DNA of 39,409 bases, from UHGV virus genome UHGV-0098635; one strand, 5' to 3'. The DNA comes from a virus. The position numbers and the translations under genes were made by a program. Below the pieces are notes generated by a model. It was given only the letters and a program-made list of their open reading frames with translations, did not search any database and was not told the DNA's origin. This document shows positions 3,570-33,280 of the stretch, piece by piece; the stretch's first letter is position 1, and the number at the start of each line of letters is the position of its first letter.

Positions 3570-3646
3570 TTACCGTTGAGGTAATGATTATGCGTATTTG
3601 GTTTGGTGTCAATAGATATGAGTTAAAAAAATTACCCTTAAGGTAA
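3570..3646 (-). promoter_or_regulatory. candidate leftward early promoter flanked by two TTACC-N5-GGTAA operator palindromes
   Basis: Minus-strand TTGACA (plus 3607-3612) and CATAAT (plus 3587-3592), though the spacer is only about 14 bp. Palindromes at 3570-3584 (TTACCGTTGAGGTAA) and 3632-3646 (TTACCCTTAAGGTAA). Confidence 0.5.
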
Positions 3647-3652
3647 TTGTGT

Positions 3653-3683
3653 AGACAATAAAAAAGCCGCCAGAAGGCGGCTT
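3653..3683 (-). terminator. rho-independent terminator after the repressor gene
   Basis: Stem AAGCCGCC / GGCGGCTT with a 4-nt loop, followed on the minus strand by a T-run. Confidence 0.6.
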
Positions 3684-3703
3684 ACTTACTGAAAAATATG
3701 ATT

Positions 3704-4288
3704 TTATTGTTTGTTTTTTTCGTTCTGGTTGATGACAAATTCAATGTAACTTTCGATCTTTGCTTTCTCGGTTTCGGGTAACAATGCGTAGCGCGAGCGG
3801 TCATAGTTGATGGTCGCAGGGTCGTGCGGGTGAATCAGTAATTCATAGCCGTGACGCCCGAATGCGGATGCAACATTCTCCAGGGTGGAAATGGAAACGC
3901 TGACCTCATTGTTTAACAGGCGGCTGATTGTCACCTGGGCGACGCCGGATGCGCGGTGAAGTTTTCCCTGTGTTGAAAGGTCGCGGCTTTCGCTCATCCA
4001 GCGTTCCAGGTTGTGAGCCGCCAGCTGACCAATGTCGCTTGGGCCGACAGGCTGAAAACCTTCCTGAGAAAGCGAGCGATCGATATCAAGCCAGTTACGG
4101 GGTTTATTGGCGGCAGCTTCAATTTTTCGCGCAACCTGGTCGCCGATAACCTTCTTGCCAAGAGCCCAGCGGTTTACCAGATTTGCCTGAGTTCCAAGTT
4201 TTTCTGCCATCCGCGTCTGAACACCATTGAATTCACGGTCGATCAAGTCGTTGAGATTTTGCCTGCGGACGTCCTGGATACTTTTCAT
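3704..4288 (-). CDS. phage repressor, CI-like role, two HTH regions, no S24 peptidase domain
   Basis: 194-aa ORF divergent from a Cro-like gene. HTH-like segments at residues about 25-45 and 110-140. No Ser/Lys autoprotease motif (no GDSM-type segment). Confidence 0.7.
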   Translation of the reverse strand: MKSIQDVRRQNLNDLIDREFNGVQTRMAEKLGTQANLVNRWALGKKVIGDQVARKIEAAANKPRNWLDIDRSLSQEGFQPVGPSDIGQLAAHNLERWMSESRDLSTQGKLHRASGVAQVTISRLLNNEVSVSISTLENVASAFGRHGYELLIHPHDPATINYDRSRYALLPETEKAKIESYIEFVINQNEKNKQ

Positions 4289-4343
4289 TTTCTGGAAAAT
4301 CGCCTCGTATATGAATCAGTAGATGATTCAATTTAAAGCAATA

Positions 4344-4406
4344 TTACCCAACAGGTAAATGCACCCCATAGGTAACTATCCTTGATTTTTGTTACCTTAT
4401 GGGTGA
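4344..4406. promoter_or_regulatory. tripartite operator cluster between the repressor and Cro-like genes
   Basis: TTACCCAACAGGTAA (4344-4358), imperfect GCACCCCATAGGTAA (4361-4375), TTACCTTATGGGTGA (4392-4406). A candidate rightward promoter TTGTTA-N17-TATTAT overlaps the third site. Confidence 0.6.
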
Positions 4407-4442
4407 ATATTTATTATCTGAAATAAATATCAGGCAATAGCT

Positions 4443-4673
4443 ATGAGCGATAACGGACATTTCGATTTCAAAAAGCACTGGCTTGCACTTACTCCGGATG
4501 AGCGTGAAGCCTTCGCACAGGAAGCCGGAACGACGAGTCACTATATCCAGACTCACTTAACAGGTAAGCGCAAAATGCCAGGTAAAGTATTGATGAATGG
4601 GCTTTTTAAAGCCTGTAAAACAAGACAATGGCTGCGCTCAAAAGCAGAACTGGCATACTTCTTCTACTCATGA
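4443..4673 (+). CDS. Cro-like small DNA-binding protein (YdaS-like)
   Basis: 76-aa ORF transcribed divergently from the repressor, directly downstream of the operator cluster. Confidence 0.55.
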   Translation: MSDNGHFDFKKHWLALTPDEREAFAQEAGTTSHYIQTHLTGKRKMPGKVLMNGLFKACKTRQWLRSKAELAYFFYS

Positions 4674-4695
4674 TATCCAGCCACAACCCTCTGTA

Positions 4696-4720
4696 GACCG
4701 CCACCCGGCGGTCTTTTCAT
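4696..4720 (+). terminator. rho-independent terminator after the Cro-like gene (tR1-like position)
   Basis: Stem GACCGCC / GGCGGTC, loop ACCC, followed by TTTTCAT. Confidence 0.5.
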
Positions 4721-4823
4721 ATCTATTCGCACCTCAAAGGTAATAAAAAACCAAATCTGGTTGATCTTTTTTTTGTGTCAGCACAAAATGACCGTAATCC
4801 CAATACTAATAACAGGGCTTACC

Positions 4824-5024
4824 ATGGAAATCATTACACGTATTGATGCCGCAAAGCGCGGACTTAAACGCTACTACACCGGAAAAACATGTAAGCACGG
4901 ACATGACAGTGAACGCTGGGTTTACAACGGACACTGTGTTGAGTGCACCATGGAATCAAACCGTCGTATCAGGGCAGAGATTAAGCAGATCATGATTAAT
5001 TCCTCCCCACAACATTCAAGCTGA
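4824..5024 (+). CDS. small zinc-ribbon protein in the cII position
   Basis: Start taken as the ATG at 4824 (MEIITR). Contains TCKHGHDSERWVYNGHCVEC with Cys/His ligands. Confidence 0.45.
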   Translation: MEIITRIDAAKRGLKRYYTGKTCKHGHDSERWVYNGHCVECTMESNRRIRAEIKQIMINSSPQHSS

Positions 5025-5039
5025 TAGCGGAGATTAATC

Positions 5040-5855
5040 ATGAGCAGACATGCAACAGATTGGGCCTGGGAGACAGATCCAGGTAGCTCGTCATTAAAGC
5101 TCATACTGCTCTCGATGGCTGACAGAGCCGATGAATATAACCTCTGCTACCCCAGCATAGAACGCCTCGTTAAAGACACTTGTCTGAATAAAAAAACCGT
5201 GCAGGCCGGGCTTATATCGCTCATGAAAATGGGGCTTATTTCAGATACCGGAGAGAGAAAGGGAGCGACAAAAAGAGTGCGGGTTTTCTCTCTTAATATA
5301 ACCAAAAACGGGAACATTAAAGGCAACCGGGAGGGGGGCAATGAACCCGAAAACGGTAATGTTACCGAAAACGGGAATATACCCAAAAACGGGATGTTGA
5401 ATGATCCCAAAAACGGGATGTTGAATGATCCCAAAAACGGGATCCAGAACCAGTCATATAACCAGTCATTTAACCAAGAGAGGGAGAGCAGGACAAAAAA
5501 CGGGGATTCTGTGCCTCATGACCCCGACGCAAACAACGCCGTGATGAATAACTTTGTTCCTCCTGGTGGGCCAGGGCAATTAGGCAAATTTGTCATGCAT
5601 GAACAATGGCAGCCATCAGATGACTTTCTTCGGAAAAGCTCATTGCAGGGGATCTACCTGGACAGTCTGCCAACGGCACAGGAACTTGCAGAGTTCAGAA
5701 TTTACTGGATGGCTGAGGGTAAGGCATACCATCAGGCACAGTGGGAGCAGAAGCTGGCAAGGCGGCTGCAGATTAGCAGACAGAAGCAATCAACATTACC
5801 TGATAACAACGTTCCGCACTGGAACAGCCCTGAAGCATGGGAGGATTTCTTGTGA
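5040..5855 (+). CDS. replication initiator (O-like role) with internal iterons
   Basis: 271-aa ORF with an N-terminal winged-helix-like region, a low-complexity KNG-repeat middle encoded by direct DNA repeats, and a P-like gene immediately downstream. Confidence 0.65.
   Translation: MSRHATDWAWETDPGSSSLKLILLSMADRADEYNLCYPSIERLVKDTCLNKKTVQAGLISLMKMGLISDTGERKGATKRVRVFSLNITKNGNIKGNREGGNEPENGNVTENGNIPKNGMLNDPKNGMLNDPKNGIQNQSYNQSFNQERESRTKNGDSVPHDPDANNAVMNNFVPPGGPGQLGKFVMHEQWQPSDDFLRKSSLQGIYLDSLPTAQELAEFRIYWMAEGKAYHQAQWEQKLARRLQISRQKQSTLPDNNVPHWNSPEAWEDFL
5302..5514. repeat. iteron array inside the initiator gene; candidate replication origin
   Basis: About seven copies of the core CAAAAACGGGA, including a perfect 24-bp tandem duplication cccaaaaacgggatgttgaatgat at 5382-5405 and 5406-5429. 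Confidence 0.6.
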
Positions 5856-6637
5856 ACAACGTTTTTACCGCGATACAAAACCGTGACGGAGAAGCCCTTT
5901 CTCGCATGTCAGGTTATGAGCATCAGTACGTCAACAATGACAATGTGGTGAACATGTCAGCAGAGAGGCTTGTTGATGCCCTTTTTAAACAGCTGAAACA
6001 ACTGTTTCCGGCGGCAGTGGTAACCAACCTGAAGACGCCAGAGCAGGAAGTTGCTGCAAAACAGCAGTGGATTGCTGCGTTTGCCGAAGGGGGGATCCGA
6101 ACCCGTGAACAGGTTTCTGCTGGTATGCGCCACGCCCGCGCCAGTGAATCTCCGTTCTGGCCGTCTCCAGGGCAATTTATCAAGTGGTGCAAAGACAGCA
6201 AGATGGTTCTTGGCGTCACCATTGACGATGTGATGGCGGAGTTTCACCGGTACAGCAAGGAAAAAAGTTTATATCCTGGTGGTCCCGAAAGATTCCCGTG
6301 GCGACATCCGGTTATGTACTGGGTCGTATGTGATACCCGCCGCGCAATGTATCAGCGCCAGCTTAGCGAGATTGAGGTTGAGAAACACGCACGCAGGCTG
6401 CTCGATGATTGGGCGAAAAAGGTGGCTTCCGGACAGCAGATACCCGATCCGGTGATCAGCATACAGGCAAAGCCAGAACCCATGAGTACGCCTCCGGACA
6501 CAGGGAGAGACGTTTACCATCCACCAGGGCGAAGTTTCGGGTGCATGCCTAACGCCGCCACCCTTGGGGGAATAACACCGGCGCAGTGGCTGATGGAGGA
6601 ATACAGGCGGGGAAAGGCGGCAGGATTTATCAAGTAA
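5852..6637 (+). CDS. lambda P-like replication protein (DnaB helicase loader)
   Basis: The segment LFPAAVVTNLKTPEQEVAAKQQWIAAFAEGGIRTREQVSAGMRHARASESPFWPSPGQFIKWCKD aligns with the conserved lambda P region (recalled). Likely GTG start at 5852 with GGAGG RBS, overlapping the upstream stop. Confidence 0.8.
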   Translation: MNNVFTAIQNRDGEALSRMSGYEHQYVNNDNVVNMSAERLVDALFKQLKQLFPAAVVTNLKTPEQEVAAKQQWIAAFAEGGIRTREQVSAGMRHARASESPFWPSPGQFIKWCKDSKMVLGVTIDDVMAEFHRYSKEKSLYPGGPERFPWRHPVMYWVVCDTRRAMYQRQLSEIEVEKHARRLLDDWAKKVASGQQIPDPVISIQAKPEPMSTPPDTGRDVYHPPGRSFGCMPNAATLGGITPAQWLMEEYRRGKAAGFIK

Positions 6638-6674
6638 TACCAGCGCGATAGCGCATTTTTTTACGCCTTGATAA

Positions 6675-6751
6675 TTACCTGTTGGGTAATAAAATATTCT
6701 AAACTCTATTGATTTCGTGTCTTATGTGGTTTTTAATTACCTTAGAGGTAA
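6675..6751 (+). promoter_or_regulatory. composite regulatory module upstream of the nin-like operon
   Basis: TTACCTGTTGGGTAA (6675-6689), CTTATGTGGTT (6721-6731), TTACCTTAGAGGTAA (6737-6751) ending 3 nt before the ATG at 6755. Confidence 0.5.
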
Positions 6752-6754
6752 ATC

Positions 6755-7102
6755 ATGAGAAAACAGATACAGGCTCTTGGTCGACTCAAAACAGGCCAGA
6801 TGAACAAAACAGAATCTGCGTATTGCCAGCACCTTGAGCAGCGTAAACGTGCAGGGGAAATCGCCTGGTATCGATTCGAGGGTATCAAGCTGCGGTTAGC
6901 TGACAACACGTTCTATACGCCTGATTTCGCTGTGATGCTCGCCACCGGAGAGATGGAACTGCACGAAGTGAAAGGGGGATTCTGGACCGACGACGCCAGG
7001 GTGAAAACCAAAGTAGCCGCAGATCAGTATCCGTTCCGAATCATCGGGGTAACGGTTAAACCAAAGAAAGCAGGTGGCGGCTGGAACATCGAAGAGTTCT
7101 GA
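6755..7102 (+). CDS. DUF1064-like phage protein (possible resolvase-like nuclease)
   Basis: 115-aa ORF; the pattern YCQHLEQRKRAGEIAWYRFEGIKLRL...YTPDFAV...HEVKGG recalls DUF1064; nin-region position. Confidence 0.55.
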   Translation: MRKQIQALGRLKTGQMNKTESAYCQHLEQRKRAGEIAWYRFEGIKLRLADNTFYTPDFAVMLATGEMELHEVKGGFWTDDARVKTKVAADQYPFRIIGVTVKPKKAGGGWNIEEF

Positions 7103-7163
7103 ATCGACGATCTTTTTAGTTATCAATGTAATCAATAAGTTATGTGGATAAGCGAGGGTAAAG

Positions 7164-7721
7164 ATGGAAAGTAATATCAAAGGGTTAGTTGCCGCCGGGC
7201 ATGAGATGGCTTCGGAACTGAAAGCAGAATGTGGTGCCGTTGATATGCGCAGTGTGGCAAAGCTGATCAGCGATTTGGCAACGCAACTGGAAGTTCAGTT
7301 GGTGCGTGCTAATGAGCTGGCTGAAGACCAGCAGAAAGCGATTGAGTCAATTAAGCAGGCTGATTCGGCTGTTAAGTTGGCACACGAGAAGTTTTCGGAG
7401 CTGGCAGCGGAGAATGCGGGGCTTAAGGCGATATGTGATGACCGTCGCAGGTTCATCATGAATGGGGTGCAGATGGGTTATATCAAGGTTCCAGCAGCGG
7501 AAACAGATCCAGACCTTGAGACAATTCGCATTGCTATATCACCACAAAAGCCCATTCCAGCCACCGATGCTTTCCTGACTGAAATTGAACGCAAAGCAAT
7601 CCGAAAGTTCATTAACAGCATTGAACACATCCTGCGTGACAAGCTGTCTCCGTATGACACCGAAGAGATGCTTGAGGCTATGCGTATTTTTCTGGAAGAA
7701 CAGGAAGGTGAGCAAAAATGA
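7164..7721 (+). CDS. hypothetical phage protein
   Basis: 185-aa ORF with start/stop coupling to the next gene; predicted helical. Confidence 0.55.
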   Translation: MESNIKGLVAAGHEMASELKAECGAVDMRSVAKLISDLATQLEVQLVRANELAEDQQKAIESIKQADSAVKLAHEKFSELAAENAGLKAICDDRRRFIMNGVQMGYIKVPAAETDPDLETIRIAISPQKPIPATDAFLTEIERKAIRKFINSIEHILRDKLSPYDTEEMLEAMRIFLEEQEGEQK

Positions 7722-8023
7722 CGATCACAAAACAACGTGTAGAAGAAATCATATCCCGTATTGAAATGTATGGGCATGGTGCCGGGTATACCGCTGATGA
7801 GGTTTATGACCTTGCTGTACTGGCGCTGAATTTATCAAATATCGCAAAACTCAAGCGATACGAGCTTGATATGGATGGTTGTGACTCGTTCGGTCAGGAT
7901 TGTGGCGCTGACATGACTGAAGATTCTGATGGCGATTATGTCCTGTTTGATGACGTAGTTAAGTTGTTTGAGTTTGATACATTCGAAAGCCCAGCAAAGG
8001 AGGCAACCAGTGAGCAAGATTGA
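7718..8023 (+). CDS. hypothetical acidic phage protein
   Basis: 101-aa ORF whose start overlaps the upstream stop. Confidence 0.5.
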   Translation: MTITKQRVEEIISRIEMYGHGAGYTADEVYDLAVLALNLSNIAKLKRYELDMDGCDSFGQDCGADMTEDSDGDYVLFDDVVKLFEFDTFESPAKEATSEQD

Positions 8024-8534
8024 TTATCAGGCACTGCGTGAGTTAGCAAAACAGGCAACACAAGGAGAATGGGTTGCATTTATTTCGACGGGTACTGGTA
8101 CGTATGCGGTGCATACGCCCGGTGATAAACGATGTGAAGACGTTATCAAATGGACCGGCTTTGATGGACAGAAAAACGCAGAGAACAACGCTCGTTATAT
8201 CGCAGCTTTCAACCCAGAAGTAGTGCGGGCACTACTGGATGAACGGGAAAGAAACCAGCAATACATCAAAAGCCGTGATCAGGAGAACGAGGATATTGCG
8301 CTAACGGTAGGGAAGTTGCGCGTTGAGCTTGAGGCAGAAAAACAGCGGGCAAAGGATCTGTTTATGGAAAATGCTCGGCTTAAGTCAGGTATAGCCGGTC
8401 TGATACACCTCGGTATTCGATATGCAGATGTTGATGTCATGAAAATTGCTGGAGATGCCCAGCTTTCTACCCCATGCACTGACAGCATCATAAACAGCAT
8501 TGCAACAGGCATTCGCATCAACGGAGGTGAGTAG
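8010..8534 (+). CDS. Ead/Ea22-like family protein
   Basis: GTG start at 8010 with AAGGAGG 6 nt upstream; QGEWVAF...YAVHTPGDKRCEDVI...NARYIAAFNPEVVRALLD resembles Ead/Ea22-like early proteins. Confidence 0.6.
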   Translation: MSKIDYQALRELAKQATQGEWVAFISTGTGTYAVHTPGDKRCEDVIKWTGFDGQKNAENNARYIAAFNPEVVRALLDERERNQQYIKSRDQENEDIALTVGKLRVELEAEKQRAKDLFMENARLKSGIAGLIHLGIRYADVDVMKIAGDAQLSTPCTDSIINSIATGIRINGGE

Positions 8535-8706
8535 TGCGTGTGGCATGTATTGGCTTGTTACCGTACCCGACTCGTTTTTTGGCTTCTGCGCTAATTGCAA
8601 AGCCGTATGTCCTGATGGCTGACAACATCATCCCGGCACCAAAGCGCCGCCATACCGGTATTGCAGCGGCACGACGAGCAGCAAAGAGACGCAGGAGAGC
8701 AAAGCG

Positions 8707-8883
8707 ATGAAAAACCGTAAGGCAAAACGACTTTTTTTACAGCGACCTGTGCGTGTGGTGGAGCTGGTTATTAGCAACCATAAGATAGCGGTACTCCATC
8801 CATTTGGTCAGGTGGCTTTTGCCGCAAAGCGTAAGCCTACTGCGTCACAGAACAGGCGGAAGAAAGGGTACGCTGTAAGATGA
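8707..8883 (+). CDS. small basic protein, paralog of the next ORF
   Basis: 58-aa ORF not in the track; starts MKNRKAKRLFLQRP, with the first roughly 40 nt nearly identical to the start of the ORF at 8880; its stop overlaps that start. Confidence 0.35.
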   Translation: MKNRKAKRLFLQRPVRVVELVISNHKIAVLHPFGQVAFAAKRKPTASQNRRKKGYAVR

Positions 8884-9068
8884 AAAACCGTAAAGCAAAG
8901 ATTCTGTTAGTTCGTAGAAACGCTCCTGGCGTCTGGCAGTGGGTGAGACTCAGCAACCGACGGATGGGGTTGATGAAATATTACGGGATGATGGATTGTG
9001 GTTTTTGCAAAAAGCCCAGCGCGGCGCAAAACCGCTGGAAAAACCACTTGCGCACTAAAGGAGAGTGA
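8880..9068 (+). CDS. small basic protein with Cys pair
   Basis: 62-aa ORF starting MKNRKAKILLVRR. Confidence 0.45.
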   Translation: MKNRKAKILLVRRNAPGVWQWVRLSNRRMGLMKYYGMMDCGFCKKPSAAQNRWKNHLRTKGE

Positions 9069-9069
9069 T

Positions 9070-9333
9070 ATGGCAACTTTGACAAAAAAAGAACAAGCAT
9101 GGTTGAGCGAATTACAGGACGTTCTTGATCGCTGTCCATCACCGAAAAAAATTGGTTTTTACACCATTGGCGATAAAAGCATTTACCTGTATGACCTGCG
9201 CCGCATGGATGAAATCATGGAGGCTCTTGATAATCGTTCGTCGATGGATTGGTGTGTTGCTGTTCATGATATGAATGCAGGGTTTGATGAAAAGATTTTG
9301 TTCCCCTCATCAGTTGAAAGCACTGCGGGTTAA
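9070..9333 (+). CDS. hypothetical phage protein
   Basis: ATG at 9070 with GGAG RBS, directly after the upstream stop. Confidence 0.5.
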   Translation: MATLTKKEQAWLSELQDVLDRCPSPKKIGFYTIGDKSIYLYDLRRMDEIMEALDNRSSMDWCVAVHDMNAGFDEKILFPSSVESTAG

Positions 9334-9343
9334 GGAGTAACAC

Positions 9344-9940: not shown

Positions 9941-9970
9941 CATGCAACTTATCCTTAAAGGTGAAAAGAT

Positions 9971-10192: not shown

Positions 10193-10219
10193 GTATGTTC
10201 GCGATAAAGGTAAATATTG

Positions 10220-10558
10220 ATGGCTAAATCAGCAGCAGAGCGCAAAGCCGCTCAGAGAGCCAGACAAGCTGCATCTGGTGTGCGTAAGCTGGAGATTGTG
10301 CTTGATGCTCAGGAAATTGAAATGCTGGAGCGTAACTGTGCCACGCGTCGCCCCGGGCGTGCGCCTTACGAATTTGGTGAGTATATAGCGTTACTGATCC
10401 GCCAGGATGATGCACGCGTGCGCGGGCGTATAAAATCGATCAGCAGAAAACGTTGCGGTAAGTGCGGCGAGAGAGTTCCTGTGAATTCATGCCCGTGCAA
10501 TGGTGACTCGCAATGCTGGGTGACTAAAGGCTGGCATGAAACGAAATTAATAGTGTGA
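10220..10558 (+). CDS. zinc-finger protein at the end of the early region; candidate late-gene regulator
   Basis: 112-aa ORF with a basic N-terminus and a CGKCGERVPVNSCPCNGDSQC cluster; it is the last gene before a terminator and terminase. Confidence 0.45.
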   Translation: MAKSAAERKAAQRARQAASGVRKLEIVLDAQEIEMLERNCATRRPGRAPYEFGEYIALLIRQDDARVRGRIKSISRKRCGKCGERVPVNSCPCNGDSQCWVTKGWHETKLIV

Positions 10559-10566: not shown

Positions 10567-10607
10567 GAGTAGATTATGCATGATGAATTTGATGGGTTTT
10601 GAATACT

Positions 10608-10634
10608 GCCGCCAACTATGGCGGCTTTATTTTG
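10608..10634 (+). terminator. rho-independent terminator upstream of terminase (tR'-like position)
   Basis: Stem GCCGCC / GGCGGC, loop AACTAT, followed by TTTATTTTG. Confidence 0.5.
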
Positions 10635-10676
10635 CATGGTACTATTACCACAACGGTAACTATTACCACGGTGGTT

Positions 10677-11273
10677 ATGATGCCTGCTGAACCTAAAACC
10701 TATAAACGCAAATCAACGCAATTTAAGCCACTAACAGCAATGCAGGAGGCTTATTGCCAGTCATACATCAAAACGCCTGAAAACCAGACTCAGGCAGCGA
10801 TTAACGCAGGATTCTCCCCAAATACAGCGGCAGTTAAAGCCAGTGTCATGATGCGCGATGAACGCATTCAAAAACGGATTGCCGAGTTGATGGAGGAGCG
10901 CAACAAACGAATGCGCGTCAGTGCTGATTACGTTCTCATGCGCCTGGTGGAGATCGACCAGATGGACGTGATCGATATCCTCAACGACGATGGGAGCCTT
11001 AAACCAATCCGTGAGTGGCCGAAAATCTGGCGCACTACGCTTAGTGGCTTTGATCTGTCATCGACCATCATGAACATGAACGAGGATTCGATAGAGACAA
11101 TCCTCAAAAAAATTAAATGGCCTGACAAGGTGAAGAACCTTGAGCTGATTGGTAAGCATGTTGATGTCAACGCGTTCAAAGAACGTCTGGATGTTAATGT
11201 GAATGTGACAATTGCTGATCGCATAGCAGCAGCCAGGAAGCGACTCAAAGAACGTCAGGATGGTAATCAGTGA
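10677..11273 (+). CDS. terminase small subunit
   Basis: Start ATG at 10677 or 10680; positioned directly upstream of the large subunit with a 4-nt overlap. Confidence 0.65.
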   Translation: MMPAEPKTYKRKSTQFKPLTAMQEAYCQSYIKTPENQTQAAINAGFSPNTAAVKASVMMRDERIQKRIAELMEERNKRMRVSADYVLMRLVEIDQMDVIDILNDDGSLKPIREWPKIWRTTLSGFDLSSTIMNMNEDSIETILKKIKWPDKVKNLELIGKHVDVNAFKERLDVNVNVTIADRIAAARKRLKERQDGNQ

Positions 11274-13560: not shown

Positions 13561-13564
13561 GATT

Positions 13565-13579
13565 ATACCTTTAAGGTAA
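13565..13579 (-). promoter_or_regulatory. operator-like palindrome abutting the accessory gene start
   Basis: Minus-strand TTACCTTAAAGGTAT followed by AATC and the ATG. Confidence 0.5.
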
Positions 13580-13595
13580 TTTGCGGTCATCAAGC

Positions 13596-14181: not shown

Positions 14182-14258
14182 TTACCTGAAAGGTAATAAT
14201 TCGCGCGTTAAATGTCAACTGTCTACGATAAATAAATCATATGTGGTTAAATTGGTAA
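14182..14258 (+). promoter_or_regulatory. composite regulatory module upstream of the portal operon
   Basis: TTACCTGAAAGGTAA (14182-14196), CATATGTGGTT (14237-14247), GGTAAT half-site (14253-14258). Confidence 0.5.
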
Positions 14259-14286
14259 TGATTTAATTGCGTACGGAGTCATTGAT

Positions 14287-25968: not shown

Positions 25969-27767
25969 GTTACTTTGGCCTTAATCCAGTAAACCAGAAT
26001 CAGCAGCTTGACGAAGCAGCATCAAATCCAGCTGGCTTTAACAGCGATGTTGGTTTTTTCGACAATGCTGTAGGAGCGGCATTGTCTGGTTTGTACTCCG
26101 GGCTGGTGGCAAAGCCAGATCAGTTGCTCTGGGCAGGGATGGATAAAATCGTATCCCCGATTGCTCAGTTTATTAACGAAAACACCTCGCTCAATGATAC
26201 TTCAGTTTCATACATTGCCGAGCAGAGAAAACTAGCAGAGCAGCAGGTTAAGCGGCTGACGCCTGATGCCGCGACAACCGGAACCGCCGGGCAGGTTCTT
26301 TATGGGTTGTTCGATATGGGCGGGCAGGCTGTTGTCGGTACAACGCTCGGTGGTCCTGTCGGAGGTGCAGCGGCGGTAACTTCGCTACAGGGTTTTTCTG
26401 AGTTTGAACGGCTGACAGCACAGGGTGTTGATTTCAGGACGGCGCAGGAAGCGGGATTAGTGCAGGGCATTACTGCTGGTGCCGGAACACTGATCCCTAT
26501 GAGCCTCGGGTTACGTGCTGGTGGTGCGCTGGCGGAAGGTGTGGCGGCTCAGCTTGCGCGGACGGGTGAGAGTTCAGTGCGACGCGCCGCAGCAACAGCA
26601 GTACGTGCAACGCCAGATATTGCCTATGCCGCAGGTACAAATATTGCGTTCGGTATGGCACAGCGTGGGCTTACTGCAAAAACACTTCGTGATGGTGGCT
26701 ATAGCGAAATGGCTAACCAGTATGATGTGTTGGATCGACAGGCAATTGCTATTGATGCTGTTCTTGGGGTGGCGTTTGGTGGTGTCGGCAGATTTATTAA
26801 CTCTCGCGGCGAGTCTACAAGCGCACCAAATTTTTCACCAGTTGATATTGATGCTGCACTGGCGGCGAATGCCGCTCATCATGCTGAAATTGATATTGCT
26901 CCCGGCGTTCCGATCAACGTGCTTTCGCGTAATTCGCACATTCAGGCTCTGCGAAAAGCCATGTCTGATGTTAGCCAGGGGAGACCTGTAGACGTTGCCA
27001 GCATTGTTGAGTCTGCATCTTTCAGTGAAATTCCTGGGCGCAAGAGTCTGCTGTCTCAGGCAGTTAATGAGGCTCTGTCATCTGTAGATGATGGAGTAAC
27101 GGCGCGCGCTATAGAAAATCGGTTGCTTGAAGAACAGGCCGCGCAGCTTTTGTCGCGTGGCGATAGAAAGGTTTACCAGTCTGAAATCGCTAATAGCCAA
27201 CGAATTATTGAAAATCTCACTGAACAGCGCGCACAAATTCTTGCAGAAGAGCCAACCGGTAGCGGTAAGGCTTTATCTCGTGCTCGATCAGATAAACAGG
27301 CCAGACTTCGCGATATTGACCAACGAATCCGGCAGGCACAAGAACGCCTGGAATTTTCTCGTAACGCGTTGGCGCCGCACGAGCCTGGAGGTCAGTTTTT
27401 TGAAGCTCGAGCAGAACTGGCACGACGACAGCAGGCAGAAAGTGAACTTAATGCTCAGGCTGTTTCATTCTATAAAACAGCAGAGGTCAGGACGCCAGAA
27501 GAAGTAGCTCCTTTTGAGCCCGGTAAGATATTGCAACAGACAGAACAAAAAATGATGGCAGATCCGGCAGGAGATATTGATCTGCGTATAGCTGAAGACT
27601 CGCTGCTTGAATCACCTGACATGATAATCACCGTGCTGGATGATGATGGTAATCCACAATCGCGCAGTGCGCGTGAAGTACTGGATGAAGCGAACAGGGA
27701 AAGTGAGCAGGCAATACAGGATTCCAGCCTGTTTGATGTTGCTGTGGCGTGTTTCTTGAGAGGTTAA
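25965..27767 (+). CDS. internal virion / ejection protein
   Basis: 600-aa ORF coupled by ATGA overlap; Ala/Gly-rich N-terminus and a charged helical C-terminus. Confidence 0.6.
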   Translation: MSYFGLNPVNQNQQLDEAASNPAGFNSDVGFFDNAVGAALSGLYSGLVAKPDQLLWAGMDKIVSPIAQFINENTSLNDTSVSYIAEQRKLAEQQVKRLTPDAATTGTAGQVLYGLFDMGGQAVVGTTLGGPVGGAAAVTSLQGFSEFERLTAQGVDFRTAQEAGLVQGITAGAGTLIPMSLGLRAGGALAEGVAAQLARTGESSVRRAAATAVRATPDIAYAAGTNIAFGMAQRGLTAKTLRDGGYSEMANQYDVLDRQAIAIDAVLGVAFGGVGRFINSRGESTSAPNFSPVDIDAALAANAAHHAEIDIAPGVPINVLSRNSHIQALRKAMSDVSQGRPVDVASIVESASFSEIPGRKSLLSQAVNEALSSVDDGVTARAIENRLLEEQAAQLLSRGDRKVYQSEIANSQRIIENLTEQRAQILAEEPTGSGKALSRARSDKQARLRDIDQRIRQAQERLEFSRNALAPHEPGGQFFEARAELARRQQAESELNAQAVSFYKTAEVRTPEEVAPFEPGKILQQTEQKMMADPAGDIDLRIAEDSLLESPDMIITVLDDDGNPQSRSAREVLDEANRESEQAIQDSSLFDVAVACFLRG

Positions 27768-27772
27768 ATTAA

Positions 27773-30247
27773 ATGAGACAGGAATGTATACAAGCGGTCC
27801 AGCAGGCGGCGCAGCGCACGTTAACGGCGCGAGAAATACAGAACATTGAAGACCGCATTTATCGAAATATGCGCTCCATTGCTCGTGATGACCCGATGTC
27901 GTGGCGACAACTTTCCGAATCAGAGCGGCTGTATCGTGCAGCACAATTGGCATCTGAAGAATTACAGCGAGAAGCGGCATTAAAGAAACGTCGTGTGGCC
28001 CTCACTATAGCCGCACGTCAGAGATTGGATAAATTTATCAATAGCTATCAAGGGGCTGATGGGAAACTTGGCGCTCTTAACCGTACTATTGCTTTTAATG
28101 CAGACGGTAAATCGAATTTCCTCTCTGTTGAATCCAGAACAAAAGCCACCCGTGATTATGCATTGAGTCAATTACAGGAGGCATTCGAAGCAGTTGATCC
28201 TCGCTTTTTTGGTCTGTTTGAAGATGAAGCGGGCGTACGTGACCTGGTATATGAAATGCGGGGGCAAAATACTGGCAATGCTAAAGCAAGAAAAGGTGCT
28301 AAGGCGTGGAGAGAAGTGACAGAGCTACTGCGCCGCCGGTTTAATGATGCTGGTGGGGACATTGGCTATCTCGAAAACTGGGGGATCCCTCAACATCATT
28401 CTATGGAAAAGGTTGGGGCGGTATCAAAAGATAAATGGGTTAGCGATGTTATAGGTAAGCTGGATCGCAAATATTATACCCGAGCCGATGGACAACTGAT
28501 GAACGATGCCGAGTTGTCTGCATTTCTTGGAGAGGCTTATAACACGATCGCTACTGGTGGGCTGAATAAGCTTACTGATACCGGAATGCGAATTTCCGGC
28601 GCACGTGCTAACCGTGGTAATGCATCACGACAGATACATTTCAAAGATGCAGATTCCTATCTGCAATATCAGCAACTTTATGGCGATCGCTCTCTATGGG
28701 AAATCATGGTCGGTCACCTGGAAGGGATCAGTAAAGATATTGCTTTGGTGGAAACATATGGTCCAAACCCCGATCATGTTTTCCGTTCCCTTCTTGATCA
28801 GGTGAAGGCAGAAACGGCAACAGCTAACCCGAGTAAAACCGGTAGCGTCGAGCGGCTGGCGAACAAAACAGAGAACCTGTACAACTTTATTTCCGGAAAG
28901 ACACAGCCTGTTGCGAATCCTCACATCGCGCGCTGGTCTGACAATATCAGAAACTGGCTGGTTGCCAGCAGGCTCGGATCCGCGTTGCTGTCATCGTTCT
29001 CTGATCTTGGAACCATGTATCTGTCTGCGAAGGTTACCAACCTTCCAATGAACCAGTTATTCCGCAACCAGCTTGAAGCTATGGACCCAACGAACCGTAC
29101 AGAACTTGCGCGGGCGCGCCGCGCTGGTCTGGCGATGGAATCTCTACTTGGCAGCGTTAACCGCTGGGCGATGGATAATATGGGGCCGTCAGTGTCTCGT
29201 TGGGCGGCAACGGCGGTAATGCGTGCCAGTGGGCTTACAGCATGGTCAGATGCGCACAAGCGCGCTTATGGCGTAACCATGATGGGAAGCCTGGGAGAAG
29301 TAGTGTCACGGACACCAGACCTTCGTAGCCTCGATGACTCTGATTTTCGTATCCTGAAAAGCAAAGGGATTACTGACACAGACTGGAGCGTATGGAAGCT
29401 GGCGCAACAGGAGGACTGGGGGAACGGTAATAATACGATGCTGACACCGGAAAGCATTATGCGTATCCCTGATTCAGCAGTTAAACATCTTGGTGAGCCT
29501 GAACGTGTGAAATTTGAGGCAATGCGTAAACTGCTCGGTGCCGTAACTGAAGAAGTTGATATGGCTGTTATTACACCGGGCGCACGTGAACAGATGTTCG
29601 TAGGGTCTGGTCTTCAGCGTGGAACATGGAAAGGTGAATTAACGAGAAGTGTTTTCCTGTTTAAATCGTTCCCTATCTCGGTAGTTATGCGTCACTGGCA
29701 TAGAGCTATGGGGATGCCGTCTGCTGGTGGGCGTGCGGCATATATAGCAACGTTTTTAGCAAGCACAACCATGCTTGGTGCTCTTTCCATGCAGATTACT
29801 GATCTTATTAATGGGAGAAATCCAAAAGAAATGACCGGTGACAACATGGTTAAATTCTGGATAAATGCATTTTTAAAAGGTGGTGGGGCAGGGTTGTATG
29901 GTGATTTTCTTTTCTCTGACCACACCAGGTACGGGAGCGGCGCACTAGCGTCGATGCTTGGCCCGGTAGCTGGTCTGGTTGATGACGTAGTGAAGATTGC
30001 TCAGGGCATACCGTTAAATGCTGTGGAAGGGAAGAATGAGCAGACTGGTGGTGATCTGGTTAAGCTTGGGAAAGGTTTGATGCCTGGTGCGAATCTCTGG
30101 TACTTGAAGGCGGCTCTCGATCACATGATCTTTAATCAGATGCAGGAGTATTTTTCACCAGGCTATTTGCGTAAAATGGAGCAACGTTCGAAGAAAGAGT
30201 TTAACCAGACATACTGGTGGCGACCTCAGGATGTCACTCCGCAATAA
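27773..30247 (+). CDS. internal virion protein, T7 gp16 C-terminal-region-like
   Basis: The segment LFKSFPISVVMRHWHRAMGM...AFLKGGGAGLYGDFLF parallels the T7 gp16 segment QFKSFTIKSLNSKFLRTFYDG...MGLAGGFYAM (recalled). Confidence 0.65.
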   Translation: MRQECIQAVQQAAQRTLTAREIQNIEDRIYRNMRSIARDDPMSWRQLSESERLYRAAQLASEELQREAALKKRRVALTIAARQRLDKFINSYQGADGKLGALNRTIAFNADGKSNFLSVESRTKATRDYALSQLQEAFEAVDPRFFGLFEDEAGVRDLVYEMRGQNTGNAKARKGAKAWREVTELLRRRFNDAGGDIGYLENWGIPQHHSMEKVGAVSKDKWVSDVIGKLDRKYYTRADGQLMNDAELSAFLGEAYNTIATGGLNKLTDTGMRISGARANRGNASRQIHFKDADSYLQYQQLYGDRSLWEIMVGHLEGISKDIALVETYGPNPDHVFRSLLDQVKAETATANPSKTGSVERLANKTENLYNFISGKTQPVANPHIARWSDNIRNWLVASRLGSALLSSFSDLGTMYLSAKVTNLPMNQLFRNQLEAMDPTNRTELARARRAGLAMESLLGSVNRWAMDNMGPSVSRWAATAVMRASGLTAWSDAHKRAYGVTMMGSLGEVVSRTPDLRSLDDSDFRILKSKGITDTDWSVWKLAQQEDWGNGNNTMLTPESIMRIPDSAVKHLGEPERVKFEAMRKLLGAVTEEVDMAVITPGAREQMFVGSGLQRGTWKGELTRSVFLFKSFPISVVMRHWHRAMGMPSAGGRAAYIATFLASTTMLGALSMQITDLINGRNPKEMTGDNMVKFWINAFLKGGGAGLYGDFLFSDHTRYGSGALASMLGPVAGLVDDVVKIAQGIPLNAVEGKNEQTGGDLVKLGKGLMPGANLWYLKAALDHMIFNQMQEYFSPGYLRKMEQRSKKEFNQTYWWRPQDVTPQ

Positions 30248-30256
30248 GGAACAACA

Positions 30257-30670
30257 ATGAAGGAATTATTGCTGTTATCGGTATTTTTGATATCCGCTTG
30301 CTCGACATCCTATGATGTTTATGACGGTGTTGATAAGGCATATTGCGACAAAGTTAAAATGGATTTTTCTCTTGCCAAGACGGCGAAGGATAGTTGTATT
30401 GATCACTACGTCAAGACTTATACCAAGCCAGCCTCATCGGCATCTGATATTGCTGAAGGTGCTGTGTTTGAGTGTAACAAGGTGATATCCATCGCAGCGA
30501 GTTCTTCATACGATGCTGCTGTATGTGCAATGGCTGAAAGAAACGGCATGTCAGTGCAAAAAATTAATAGCATGATAAGCAGTAATGACGAAGCCAAAAT
30601 AAGAACTGATATCAGCTCGGTGAAAAAAGATGCCATGAACAGAGTTGTAAAATATCAGTCATCTTTATAA
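30257..30670 (+). CDS. lipoprotein, accessory gene
   Basis: 137-aa ORF with a signal peptide and lipobox (LISAC); AT-rich; last gene of the late operon before a terminator. Confidence 0.65.
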   Translation: MKELLLLSVFLISACSTSYDVYDGVDKAYCDKVKMDFSLAKTAKDSCIDHYVKTYTKPASSASDIAEGAVFECNKVISIAASSSYDAAVCAMAERNGMSVQKINSMISSNDEAKIRTDISSVKKDAMNRVVKYQSSL

Positions 30671-30673
30671 GTC

Positions 30674-30685
30674 GTGACATGTCAC
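30674..30685. repeat. perfect 12-bp palindrome GTGACATGTCAC, copy 2
   Basis: Lies 4 nt after the lipoprotein stop and abuts the terminator stem. Confidence 0.7.
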
Positions 30686-30710
30686 AGGCCGCTTTCGCGG
30701 CCTTGTTTTT
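30686..30710 (+). terminator. rho-independent terminator ending the late operon
   Basis: Stem AGGCCGC / GCGGCCT, loop TTTC, followed by TGTTTTT. Confidence 0.6.
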
Positions 30711-30870
30711 AACGAATGCCACCGCCACCCGGGCGGGAATCCGCAGAACGCCCACCGCAGCGGGAGCCGTCAGCGGCAGTATCGCTGTCGTGCTGACAAC
30801 GACCGGCAAAGGCCTGAGTTGAAGCTACCAGAGACAACAAAACGAACAGTGCAGCAAATGCTTTTTTCAT
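30709..30870 (-). CDS. small secreted peptide precursor
   Basis: Start taken at 30870 (MKKAF). Signal peptide MKKAFAALFVLLSLVASTQAFA followed by a roughly 31-aa Gly/Arg-rich peptide with two Cys. Confidence 0.4.
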   Translation of the reverse strand: MKKAFAALFVLLSLVASTQAFAGRCQHDSDTAADGSRCGGRSADSRPGGGGIR

Positions 30871-30951
30871 TGTGAAATTTCCATCTATAATCCACCTCAA
30901 TGCGGCGTCAATGAGTGTAGCACTGACTTTTGTTTCGTCCATAAAAAACTA

Positions 30952-31464
30952 CTATGCAGGCTTTTTGGATTTGTACGAATAATCCCACGGATAAACATTT
31001 CTACTAAGCGGAGCTGTATTCGTTCGTTCATGAAATAATTTTGTGAAATTCAATACGGAATCCATCCAAACTTTTGCGTTAGCTTTGGTGTGTGCGGGCG
31101 GGTCCCAATAAGCTAGTAAGGCTGCATCTCTTATTTCATTGACTGCATATATGAGATATGCGTTACTGGTTGGTTTTGGCCTGTAATTTCCTTGTTCATC
31201 AATCAATCCATATGACCACTCATCCCAACACTGTTCAGTACATGAGTATGAATATGATGCATATTCACCAATATTGACATGAACCTTTCTGAGATGGAAA
31301 CCTAATACTTCGTCTGGTCTTTCAAAAAGAGTATCTTTTCCCAGATCAGGATGATGACCATGACGCCAGTGTTGTTTAAAAGCATCTTTTAGCGAAATCA
31401 GAAAGTCATCAGTTTTAAACTCACCAGTAGGTATAACCTTCCCGCTATACTCACTCAAAAACAT
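30952..31464 (-). CDS. candidate toxin (weak YafO-like resemblance) of a two-gene accessory module
   Basis: 170-aa ORF overlapping the upstream gene by 14 nt; the segment GKDTLFERPDEVLGFHLRKVHVNI loosely resembles the YafO core FGRDALYD...KFERVAHIHL (recalled). Confidence 0.5.
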   Translation of the reverse strand: MFLSEYSGKVIPTGEFKTDDFLISLKDAFKQHWRHGHHPDLGKDTLFERPDEVLGFHLRKVHVNIGEYASYSYSCTEQCWDEWSYGLIDEQGNYRPKPTSNAYLIYAVNEIRDAALLAYWDPPAHTKANAKVWMDSVLNFTKLFHERTNTAPLSRNVYPWDYSYKSKKPA

Positions 31465-31777
31465 CGAATTCCTCTTCCTTCATATGCGTTTCTAATGAGT
31501 TAAGCTGGCGGAAAGATATCTCTTTTGATTCTGCAGATGAGAGCTTTTTTATCCGCTTTATATTCTTTGTGATAGGAATAGTCATTGTATGCACATCAGC
31601 GGATGCTCTTGGCTTTGTGCTGATAAAAATATGGCGCAATGCCGCATTTTCACTATTGAACGAGCCAATAGCTGATTTACGTGCTACAACCTTACCAGTA
31701 AAAATACGACTCTTGCTACGCTTTGCATGAGTTCCGCTTCTTACCGGACCTCTCATCACGAATCCAAGTTTTGTCAT
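31451..31777 (-). CDS. basic small protein, candidate antitoxin/partner
   Basis: 108-aa basic ORF, first gene of the operon, with GGAG RBS and an operator palindrome about 45 nt upstream. Confidence 0.5.
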   Translation of the reverse strand: MTKLGFVMRGPVRSGTHAKRSKSRIFTGKVVARKSAIGSFNSENAALRHIFISTKPRASADVHTMTIPITKNIKRIKKLSSAESKEISFRQLNSLETHMKEEEFDVFE

Positions 31778-31819
31778 CTTTAATCTCCGGTAAGTTACAG
31801 GTATAAAATAAAAACAGGT

Positions 31820-31834
31820 TTACCTTTAAGGTAA
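31820..31834 (-). promoter_or_regulatory. operator-like palindrome upstream of the accessory operon
   Basis: TTACCTTTAAGGTAA. Confidence 0.5.
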
Positions 31835-31906
31835 TAGTACGCTATTCACCCCCAGTCTGCAATCTGTACAGAATTATTTAAAGGCACATCCCTGTGCCGC
31901 CGCCCG

Positions 31907-32563
31907 TCAGAAGAACCCTGCCTTGTCGTTGATGTACTCCGCGTGGGTCTGGATATCACGCAGGCATTTGCTCACACCGACGATGTAGCAGAACATGGTG
32001 GTCAGCTCCGCCGCCGCGCCCGATACGTCGTGCCCGTCTTCCTGTAACTGGTTCAGCAGATTCATCAGCAGTGAGTTCTCCGTCAGGCCGAGAACACCAG
32101 ACGGAGAATGAATCAGGCTGCGGTAGCCGGGCTTCAGTGGGGCGCTGTATTCTTTTTTGTCTTCCAGCTTGATCGCCTCCATAATGGCGGGCATGAAGCC
32201 TGACAAGACCTTCTCCACTTTTGTTTCTTGTTGTCTTAAACGTTTCTCGCATTCAATGAAGTAGCGTCGCACCTGGCGACCTTTTTCGTTACGCTCGACC
32301 ATCGCCAGCTCTTTGGCTGTATCAAGGGTGAGGTGGTACTCTTTGCGGTTGTGGCCGCCTCTACCAGATGTTTGCTTTCCCAAATTGGAAAGCAAAATAT
32401 AGTCTTGATTTTCAATGAATTCGTATTCTGATATGCGATTTGTAATCCATGCTGCAAACACCTTTTTAACACCTAAAAAAGCGTGCAGATCGCGGGCATT
32501 ACAAAGTAGGGCTGTTTCGTTAGATATAGTGCCGTTGAATACGGGGATGAGTTGAGCGTTCAT
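31907..32563 (-). CDS. phage antirepressor, AntA-type N-terminal domain
   Basis: The N-terminus [32 protein letters not shown] matches the AntA/Ant antirepressor pattern; the C-terminal roughly 80 aa are paralogous to the ORF at 32881-33138. Confidence 0.75.
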
Positions 32564-32723
32564 GATGGCGTCTCCACTTAGCGAATTACATCACCACCGC
32601 TGAGACCAATCAGATGGTGGTGAACTGAACGGAGTTGGTCTTACCGGCCTAAGTGGTACCGGCGTCCTTTCGGACCCCCATTCAGCCCACCATAATTCTG
32701 GCATGACTGTGCTATACGCATAA

Positions 32724-32801
32724 AAAAACCACGTCTGGCGTGGTATGCGCCACTTAGTAATCCGGGAGACCAATCCCGGCACTGGATTTTGCCAGTGCCC
32801 G
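32724..32801 (-). ncRNA. structured non-coding segment with terminator; candidate small RNA or attenuator
   Basis: Minus-strand series of stem-loops: GGCACTGG/CCAGTGCC (plus 32780-32801), CCGGGA/TCCCGG, then CCACG-CCAGA-CGTGG followed by T7. The track ORF here (32591-32914) is judged spurious. Confidence 0.3.
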
Positions 32802-32834
32802 ATTACTATGGCACAAGAGGAGTGCGATGTAAAT

Positions 32835-32849
32835 TTACCGCAAAGGTAA
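32835..32849 (-). promoter_or_regulatory. operator-like palindrome
   Basis: TTACCGCAAAGGTAA. Confidence 0.5.
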
Positions 32850-32880
32850 ATATAAGCACTCATCTTGGTAATTTCAAGCC

Positions 32881-33138
32881 TTATCTGGTTTGTTTTCGTA
32901 ATTGTTCGGCACAATAGTCGAGATGTGTTTGCAGATCCCGCATAGACATCTGTGAGCTGGTGACGTAGTTAATCAGTGCAGTCAGTTCGGCAAGTGGGCC
33001 ATCGACATTAAATCCATCCTTATCGAGATCCCGGAGTAATTTCATCAAGTGCGATCCCTCCACTAGTGATCTGACGCCTCCCGGCGTGTGAATCCTTTCG
33101 GTAAATCCGTCTTCCAGTGGATAGTGATACTGCTGCAT
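32881..33138 (-). CDS. small antirepressor-like protein, paralog of the AntA C-terminal domain
   Basis: Start taken as the ATG at 33138 (MQQYHY) with GGAGAA RBS. IHTPGGVRSLVEGSHLMKLLRDLDKDGFNVDG...MRDLQTHLDY aligns with the AntA C-terminus [32 protein letters not shown]...[10 protein letters not shown]. Confidence 0.6.
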   Translation of the reverse strand: MQQYHYPLEDGFTERIHTPGGVRSLVEGSHLMKLLRDLDKDGFNVDGPLAELTALINYVTSSQMSMRDLQTHLDYCAEQLRKQTR

Positions 33139-33159
33139 CTTATCTTCTCCATGCAATAA

Positions 33160-33175
33160 CTGTATATTTATACAG
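33160..33175. promoter_or_regulatory. LexA (SOS) box
   Basis: CTGTATATTTATACAG; with flanks AACTGTATATTTATACAGTA it matches the 20-bp LexA consensus TACTGTATATATATACAGTA at 18 of 20 positions; about 22 nt upstream of the start at 33138. Confidence 0.75.
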
Positions 33176-33214
33176 TATCAAATAATTTGTTTGCTATCCA
33201 GCACGTTTTGCAAA

Positions 33215-33280
33215 TTACCCGAAAGGTAATATCTATTCGTATTTACAGTCTTTCTATCCATATGTGGTTTTTCGGGTAAT
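33215..33280 (+). promoter_or_regulatory. composite regulatory module in the antirepressor/tailspike divergent region
   Basis: TTACCCGAAAGGTAA (33215-33229), CATATGTGGTT (33259-33269), GGTAAT (33275-33280). Confidence 0.5.

Follow-up and report, generated by a model that had tools for sequence, protein, structure and literature searches.

Recurrent TTACC-N5-GGTAA palindromes as probable operators of the immunity repressor in a phiV10/ε15-like prophage

The TTACC-N5-GGTAA palindromes that recur across the DNA analysed here (a stretch of 39,409 nucleotides, referred to as the window) are very probably the operators of the prophage immunity repressor Rep, a protein of the SPC32H/ε15 family. This assignment is supported by the homology of Rep and by the co-occurrence of the motif with Rep in other genomes. 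The idea of Rep operators is not new, since such sites are already annotated for ε15, and the results leave the established view of the ε15/SPC32H switch as it is. The window is a phiV10/ε15-like (Uetakevirus) podophage prophage, with the structural and replication gene set and the gene order that it has in common with ε15 and phiV10. The immunity region is 98% identical at the nucleotide level to those of PAS61, phiv142-3, and phiV10, and the major capsid proteins of the same three have 99% identity to the one encoded here. Prophages carrying such an immunity region are common: among 5,426 complete E. coli genomes, 884 gave a match to it, with coverage of 80% or more in 415.

The window contains 10 exact copies of the motif, compared with 0.01 expected from dinucleotide-preserving shuffles. 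The exact copies start at positions 3570, 3632, 4344, 6675, 6737, 10645, 14182, 31820, 32835, and 33215. With the one-mismatch copies at 4392, 10663, and 13565, the number of copies with no more than one mismatch is 13, against 0.68 expected, indicating that the recurrence far above chance described in the original prediction (about 12 copies) is real. The copies listed there all exist, but the exact copy at 10645 and the one-mismatch copy at 10663, directly upstream of the terS start, had been overlooked, and the copy at 4361, which was called imperfect, carries two mismatches (GCACC...GGTAA). A full-text literature search for the motif alongside phage and repressor returned only primer-sequence matches.

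Placement relative to genes was assessed on a near-identical prophage of E. coli PCN033 that carries an NCBI PGAP annotation. This prophage has nine exact copies, eight of them intergenic, while intergenic DNA makes up only 7.3% of its length (binomial P of about 7e-9). The ninth copy lies within the first 60 nt of a frame annotated as terS, the start of which has probably been set too far upstream. At 13565, the copy falls between genes only when the second or third ATG of the accessory gene is taken as its start; with the PGAP start at 13590, this site would lie within the coding sequence. A comparison of motif counts in host and prophage DNA, proposed along with the original prediction, gave nine copies inside the PCN033 prophage and none in the roughly 212 kb of surrounding host chromosome.

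The motif follows Rep across phages and bacterial genomes. Every Uetakevirus genome examined, from phages of E. coli, Salmonella, Enterobacter, and Klebsiella, has 8 to 11 exact copies (phiV10, ε15, 66FD, Tyrion, BUCT554, BUCT711, and Kp4865-1). The RefSeq record of ε15 (NC_004775) marks seven ATTACC-N5-GGTAAT sites as "protein_bind: repressor," and these are found at corresponding places, namely at PL, after the replication genes, and at the small terminase gene, the portal operon, and the ant/tailspike region. Such operator annotation is absent from the public records of the phiV10 lineage. All six full-length Rep homologues found in other bacterial genomes (Superficieibacter, Erwinia, Klebsiella, Citrobacter, and Scandinavium) have four to seven copies no farther than 4 kb from rep. 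Distant relatives that share just the N-terminal domain of Rep have a different putative recognition helix, no copy of the motif, and a single different palindrome. This apparent covariation of helix and operator is weakly consistent with recognition of the motif by Rep.

The 194-amino-acid Rep, predicted to be a noncleavable repressor, is encoded at 3704 to 4288 on the minus strand and is a homologue of SPC32H Rep (PDB 5D50). It matches chain A of 5D50 over its full length (phmmer E value of 4e-42, residues 1 to 190) and is about 42% identical to the ε15 repressor over the whole protein (tblastn). Its Pfam domains are HTH_3 and a YdaS-like HTH only; no Pfam match to Peptidase_S24 was found in Rep, which sets it apart from cleavable repressors of the lambda CI/LexA type. 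The sequence NLVNRW in the N-terminal HTH, the putative recognition helix, is invariant across relatives, though Rep identity drops to 42%. The 85-amino-acid antirepressor Ant (32881 to 33138, minus strand) matches chain E of 5D50 with an E value of 1.4e-46 and is about 85% identical to SPC32H Ant, as counted from the alignment. A predicted LexA box, CTGTATATTTATACAG (CTGT-N8-ACAG), lies at 33160 to 33175, 22 nt upstream of the ant start codon, and a box at this place is conserved in five genomes (the window, phiV10, BUCT554, ε15, and 66FD). The full-length Rep without an S24 domain, the small Ant, the LexA box, and the operators at the ε15 positions together place the switch in the SPC32H/ε15 Rep-Ant type. 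A repressor identical to Rep blocks lytic growth of phage ZX5 when overexpressed, and that functional study of the allele defined no binding sites (PMC9782041). Two secondary reports describe Rep as a tetramer on palindromic sites that is disassembled by Ant (PMC9638917; PMC9986798).

In the early-left region, the PL-like promoter TTGACA-17-AATCAT (3584 to 3612, minus strand) lies between two exact operators, an architecture kept in six genomes. The proximal operator (3570 to 3584) abuts the -10 element of this leftward early promoter and spans about -6 to +8, and the distal operator (3632 to 3646) is found 62 bp away, upstream of the -35 element. Three sites make up the rep-cro switch. The exact operator at 4344 to 4358 overlaps the candidate -35 element and spacer of the rep promoter; 17 bp from it lies the degenerate operator at 4361 to 4375, which is exact in ε15, 66FD, and Kp4865-1. 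The third, with one mismatch (4392 to 4406), is located within the core of the rightward early promoter. The Cro-like gene that follows (4443 to 4673, plus strand; 76-amino-acid product) is a homologue of phiV10p41 and ε15 gp39. Past the cro terminator, a candidate weak operator at 4729 to 4743 has two mismatches, in the same form as the 4361 copy, and its right half, GGTAAT, is conserved.

The other copies are associated with replication, late, and cargo genes. After the terminator of the replication genes, the exact operator at 6675 to 6689 fills the spacer of TTGATA-16-TAAAAT. A second exact copy 62 bp downstream (6737 to 6751) abuts the -10 element of TTGATT-17-TTTAAT and also overlaps the ribosome-binding site of a DUF1064 gene. 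Upstream of terS, the exact operator at 10645 to 10659 is followed 18 bp beyond by the one-mismatch operator at 10663 to 10677, which overlaps the terS ribosome-binding site, and this pair is kept in the relatives checked (phiV10, BUCT554, ε15, and 66FD). The one-mismatch operator at 13565 to 13579 occupies the spacer of ATGACC-17-TATAAT, which reads leftward into an accessory gene adjoining tRNA-Arg, and overlaps a ribosome-binding site. The exact operator at 14182 to 14196 precedes the gp3/portal operon and is also directly adjacent to the -10 element of a leftward promoter-like site that faces tRNA-Arg. Another exact copy (31820 to 31834) lies upstream of a leftward two-gene operon ending in a YafO-like toxin gene. 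The exact operator at 32835 to 32849 abuts the -10 element of the leftward promoter TTGAAA-17-TATATT, which is predicted to drive an isrK-like small RNA (32722 to 32798), a C4 antisense RNA (32613 to 32697), and a gene for a 218-amino-acid antirepressor-like protein of the AntA/AntB family (31907 to 32563), all on the minus strand; the two RNAs (together 32613 to 32798) are located between the operator and the AntA-type gene. In the divergent region between ant and the tailspike gene, the exact operator at 33215 to 33229 forms the spacer of a rightward TTGCAA-16-TATCTA.

The operators overlap core promoter elements, and paired copies are spaced 61 to 63 bp or 17 bp apart. The longer spacing, about six helical turns, is that of the pairs on either side of the early-left promoter and of the promoter that follows the replication genes, and it has been kept in genomes ranging from E. 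coli to Klebsiella and Scandinavium. At two promoters in six genomes, the same architecture is kept: an operator, 19 to 20 nt, TTGAnn, 17 nt, and a -10 hexamer that ends on the first base of the next operator. This geometry persists although the intervening sequence diverges. The argument from geometry rests on cross-genome conservation, because consensus promoter scans of the operator regions gave counts of promoter-like sites not above the shuffled expectation. The placement of the copies at promoters and operon starts is borne out for several sites that overlap or abut core elements, but no convincing sigma-70 promoter was found at the terS and rightward portal sites, where promoter repression is only a proposal. 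A second recurrent palindrome, AACCA-N4-TGGTT, was also observed in these regions.

Binding of Rep at each of the sites, repression rather than activation, and bridging of the 61- to 63-bp pairs by the tetramer are inferred from these features. In the proposed mechanism, Rep is an HTH protein that would remain uncleaved upon DNA damage and would bind palindromic DNA as a tetramer. In the lysogen, it would sit on operators overlapping or adjoining core promoter elements at PL, at the rep/cro switch, downstream of the replication genes, in front of the terminase, portal, and tailspike operons, and at three cargo modules. A single protein would thereby directly silence early, late, and accessory transcription. 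Upon DNA damage, LexA would leave the box before ant and Ant would be made, which would dismantle the Rep tetramer so that all operators are vacated together. The original suggestion that one protein, most simply the noncleavable repressor, acts at early, late, and accessory promoters is supported by the homology and the motif-Rep co-occurrence. For phage immunity systems, it is unusual that repressors with no more than 42% identity use a single operator core, and this counts against the explanation.

The sites may also, or even mainly, be operators of the Cro-like 76-amino-acid protein acting as a lytic-phase repressor; this is improbable, though compatible with Rep binding. In that case, the scattered sites would serve to turn off early and cargo promoters at a late stage of infection, paralleling lambda CI and Cro. 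The gene of the Cro-like protein lies opposite rep across the three-operator switch in all relatives, and in lambdoid switches shared operators are the rule, as for lambda CI and Cro. The Cro-like protein, however, has no Pfam match and thus no DNA-binding domain recognisable in Pfam, the motif tracks the invariant NLVNRW helix of Rep, and the annotators of ε15 credited the sites to the repressor. It is very unlikely that another conserved protein binds the palindrome while Rep recognises something else. Candidates are the homologue of the late regulator phiV10p55/ε15 gp49 (10217 to 10558), PerC-like or AlpA-like regulators, and a host factor. Several copies precede late operons without good sigma-70 promoters, as activator sites would, and the second palindrome shows these regions to be under more than one regulator. 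Nevertheless, the densest and best-conserved copies bracket rep and the early promoters and overlap -35, -10, and +1 positions like repressor sites, and rep is flanked by no further repeated palindrome that could serve Rep instead. A host regulon was rejected because no copy occurs in the roughly 212 kb of host DNA.

There is hardly any likelihood that the repeats are not protein-binding sites at all but RNA hairpins, sequence related to ribosome-binding sites, or junctions of module exchange. The copies at 6737, 10663, and 13565 do overlap ribosome-binding sites, and many copies mark the edges of mosaic or cargo modules. However, the hairpin would have an A/T-rich stem of only 5 bp and a loop of 5 nt, with no T run after it, which is too weak for a terminator or attenuator, and the copies at 3632 (upstream of the -35 element) and at 6675 and 33215 (promoter spacers) would not be transcribed from those promoters. 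Both halves are invariant, although GGTAA alone could act in ribosome binding, in agreement with the earlier remark that Shine-Dalgarno overlap accounts for this half only. Stem strength, copies outside transcripts, and the invariance of both halves rule out the hairpin and ribosome-binding-site versions, and the strict spacing of 61 to 63 bp and 17 bp is a signature of protein binding.

As Rep operators, the sites can be compared with several known systems. ε15 has the same palindrome, site locations, and gene order, but the repressor here is only 42% identical and the central five bases are less A/T-rich. The copies before the tRNA-Arg accessory gene, the YafO-like operon, and the isrK/C4/AntA module are absent in ε15. 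The system resembles that of SPC32H (PDB 5D50 and 5D4Z) in the full-length Rep and Ant homologues, the LexA box before ant, and the lack of an autocleavage domain. In SPC32H, a Rep tetramer on palindromic operators is taken apart by tetrameric Ant (PMC9638917). Rep is about 42% and Ant about 85% identical to the SPC32H proteins, and a tetrameric state and sensitivity to Ant are presumed for the allele in the window. The likeness to lambda CI at OL/OR lies in the three-site switch between divergent rep and cro-like genes and in operators inside core promoters; by analogy, cooperative binding between separated sites is likely. Unlike in lambda, there is no domain for RecA-stimulated self-cleavage, late and cargo promoters are also guarded, and the inferred bridging spans 61 to 63 bp around a single promoter rather than 2.4 kb.

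The C1 repressor of phage P1 has many dispersed operators, asymmetric 17-mers, in separate operons, and in P1 immI a repressor-controlled promoter drives the C4 antisense RNA and then the antirepressor gene. The order of operator 32835, isrK and C4, and AntA is similar. The window nevertheless does not belong to the C1 regulon type, as its operator is a symmetric 15-mer and C1 is unrelated to the HTH_3-containing Rep; only the C4 RNA element (Rfam RF01695) is held in common with P1, and the resemblance is one of logic. Stoperators of mycobacteriophage L5 and Cluster A are asymmetric and orientation dependent, lie within transcribed regions, and stall elongation. They are alike in that many repressor sites occur genome-wide, beyond the immunity region, whereas the sites here are palindromic and at promoters.

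Possibly new beyond ε15 are the conserved 62-bp phasing, the single operator for 42%-identical repressors, and the operators before cargo modules. Each 61- to 63-bp pair may be held together by one Rep tetramer, with the DNA between folded into a tiny loop. A single operator specificity may be common to all Uetakeviruses despite repressor divergence to 42%. Acquired cargo (the YafO-like toxin operon, the P1-like isrK/C4/AntA module, and the gene adjoining the tRNA) may join the lysogeny switch through operators of its own. Taken together, these three proposals are less likely than not to hold.

The motif provides a simple sequence tag with which this switch can be found and annotated, and the prophage offers a natural system for studying short-range bridging by a tetrameric repressor. 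From the full operator set it can be predicted which prophage genes the lysogen keeps silent and SOS induction releases at the same time, among them the toxin-like operon and the second antirepressor. If the shared operator specificity is true, immunity would not be diversifying at the DNA level in Uetakeviruses, and cross-immunity among them would be predicted.

A pattern search of the window detected 10 exact copies of TTACC-N5-GGTAA (starting at 3570, 3632, 4344, 6675, 6737, 10645, 14182, 31820, 32835 and 33215), compared to 0.01 expected from dinucleotide-preserving shuffles. With up to one mismatch allowed, the number increased to 13 (additional copies at 4392, 10663 and 13565), compared to 0.68 expected. 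These counts indicate that the sites listed in the original prediction were right except for three corrections. The pair at 10645/10663, directly upstream of the small-terminase gene terS, had been missed; the copy at 4361, described as imperfect, has two mismatches (the form GCACC...GGTAA); and another site of that form, at 4729 past the cro terminator, was not listed. The consensus extends to A-TTACC-WWWWW-GGTAA-T; of 114 symmetrised half-sites, 110 had A or T at the central base.

The immunity region is 98% identical to that of Escherichia phages PAS61, phiv142-3 and phiV10, and matches to it were found in 884 of 5,426 complete E. coli genomes. By sequence, the window is assigned to Uetakevirus (the ε15 group), and the capsid gene confirms this assignment. 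A near-identical prophage with the same cargo adjoins guaA in E. coli PCN033. According to the independent NCBI annotation of that prophage, eight of its nine exact copies are intergenic, compared to 7.3% intergenic DNA (P about 7e-9). The ninth lies inside the first 60 nt of the annotated terS frame. Roughly 212 kb of the PCN033 chromosome around the prophage lacked the motif, indicating that, in this sample, it is not equally common in host DNA.

The terS start annotated in phiV10 (record 41-715) and by NCBI PGAP in PCN033 (locus tag RS13410) probably precedes the true start by about 27 codons (window 10599-10679). The 5' extension contains the terminator hairpin of the preceding operon together with both operators. 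In Tyrion and ε15, terS begins downstream of the operator sites, at starts equivalent to ATG 10680 of the window.

The 194-aa repressor Rep (3704-4288, minus strand) aligned over its full length to SPC32H Rep (PDB 5D50_A, E 4e-42). It contains HTH domains, and a domain search detected no S24 self-cleavage domain. The 85-aa antirepressor Ant (32881-33138, minus strand) matched SPC32H Ant (5D50_E, E 1.4e-46). A short distance upstream of ant there is a predicted canonical LexA box, CTGTATATTTATACAG (33160-33175), which is kept in phiV10, BUCT554, ε15 and 66FD. Papers citing the SPC32H work describe Rep of that phage as a tetramer on palindromic sites, with DNA-binding domain pairs contributed by different dimers, which is taken apart by tetrameric Ant (PMC9638917; PMC9986798). 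Overexpression of a repressor identical to Rep of the window abolished lytic growth of phage ZX5, in a study that defined no operator (PMC9782041). Compared with SPC32H, Ant is about 85% identical, whereas the identity of its binding partner Rep is only about 42%. Either Ant contacts Rep through a small patch that is conserved on the repressor, or a single Ant is able to act on divergent repressors.

The ε15 RefSeq record contains seven features labeled 'protein_bind: repressor', with the sequence ATTACC-N5-GGTAAT. They are located upstream of terS, upstream of gp3/portal, in the gap between ant (gp19) and the tailspike gene, in the early-left region (three) and after the replication genes, the very places occupied in the window. 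Exact copies numbered 8 in phiV10, 11 in ε15, 10 in 66FD, 9 in Tyrion, 8 in BUCT554, 9 in BUCT711 and 10 in Kp4865-1. Scanning one genome per bacterial species with the Rep alignment yielded six full-length homologues (Superficieibacter, Erwinia dacicola, Klebsiella, two Citrobacter species and Scandinavium); in every case, 4-7 exact copies lay no more than 4 kb from rep, in an unchanged layout. Rep identity drops to 42% among the compared genomes, and the N-terminal HTH sequence NLVNRW, likely the recognition helix, is invariant. Five relatives in which homology is confined to the N-terminal domain, and whose helix differs (e.g., QTQVSRL in Hydrogenovibrio), lack the motif; a palindrome of another sequence lies upstream of their gene.

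One architecture recurs in all six compared genomes at two promoters, the early-left one and the one that follows the replication genes: an operator, 19-20 nt, a TTGAnn -35 element, a 17-nt spacer, and a -10 hexamer ending in a T that is also the opening base of a second operator. The proximal operator spans about -6 to +8. The paired operators are 62 bp (61-63) apart, centre to centre, and this architecture was kept while the sequence between them diverged. In the more distant prophage of Scandinavium sp. (locus L021), both pairs are 61 bp apart rather than 62 (561/622 and 4640/4701), and the two seem to change spacing together. The rep/cro region has three sites, one inside the rightward promoter core and two, 17 bp apart, over and beside a candidate rep promoter. 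Among consensus promoter matches, operators 6675, 13565 and 33215 fill spacers, and operator 32835, like 14182 on its leftward face, directly adjoins a -10. No convincing sigma-70 promoter was detected by the scan at the terS pair, which is 18-20 bp apart in all relatives, or at the rightward face of the portal site. The counts of such consensus matches were not above shuffled expectation; the geometry argument is carried by conservation.

A second palindrome, AACCA-N4-TGGTT, had 8 matches at up to one mismatch, compared to 1.38 expected. Exact copies are at 4749-4762 and 35558-35571, one-mismatch copies at 14235-14248 and 33256-33269, and the right half, ATGTGGTT, also at 6724. Copies precede the replication genes, portal operon, tailspike gene and lysis cassette, beside or near Rep operators, and phiV10, Tyrion and the PCN033 prophage retain the palindrome, which may serve as the site of a second regulator (either the Cro-like protein or the late regulator). 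Upstream of the gp3/portal operon, a block of about 45 nt, CTACGnnAAATAAATCATATGTGGTTAAATTGGTAATAATTTAAT (about 14218-14265), has hardly changed between ε15 and phiV10 (loci L001, L002, L006, L010 and L011), although their capsid proteins are only 42% identical. Within the block, a TTAAATT-N6-AATTTAA palindrome encloses a Rep half-site at a distance of exactly 62 bp from the full operator.

Several operators precede cargo. Operator 31820 is upstream of a leftward operon of two genes (30952-31777, minus strand; 108 and 170 aa), the second of which weakly matched YafO_toxin and is annotated by NCBI as a YafO-family toxin in PCN033. Toxin-antitoxin cargo is usually expressed constitutively, whereas this YafO-like operon is placed behind a Rep operator. 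Operator 32835 adjoins a site that strongly resembles a promoter, followed by an isrK-like Hfq-binding sRNA and a C4 antisense RNA in tandem (32613-32798, minus strand; Rfam, 67.7 and 61.2 bits) and an AntA-family antirepressor gene (31907-32563, minus strand), an order that follows the logic of the P1 immI region. A P1 immI-like module with a predicted Rep-guarded promoter is present within an ε15-like prophage, as a second antirepressor system besides LexA-controlled Ant. Operator 13565 is upstream of the accessory gene adjoining tRNA-Arg. A leftward promoter-like site, TAGACA-18-AATTAT (14196-14225, minus strand), lies against operator 14182, pointing towards the phage tRNA-Arg(TCT) (13783-13859); if this promoter is real, the tRNA would also be under Rep control.

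In the lysogen, Rep tetramers would occupy all operators and obstruct RNA polymerase at the promoters of early, late and cargo genes. The SOS response would strip LexA and allow Ant production, and Ant would disassemble Rep, freeing the whole operator set at once. More speculatively, one tetramer, with its two DNA-binding pairs, may clamp operators 62 bp apart (about six helical turns, on the same helix face) or the adjacent 17-bp pairs. The motif is real, and the established placement, the Rep, Ant and LexA parts, the ε15 annotation and the co-occurrence of motif and Rep support the proposal that one repressor wires early, late and accessory promoters. The finding rediscovers the annotation of the ε15 record, and structures have been solved for the proteins of this switch. 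Possible novelties are the conservation of the 62-bp phasing, the sharing of one operator core by divergent repressors, and cargo recruitment through acquired operators, although some of these points may already be published.
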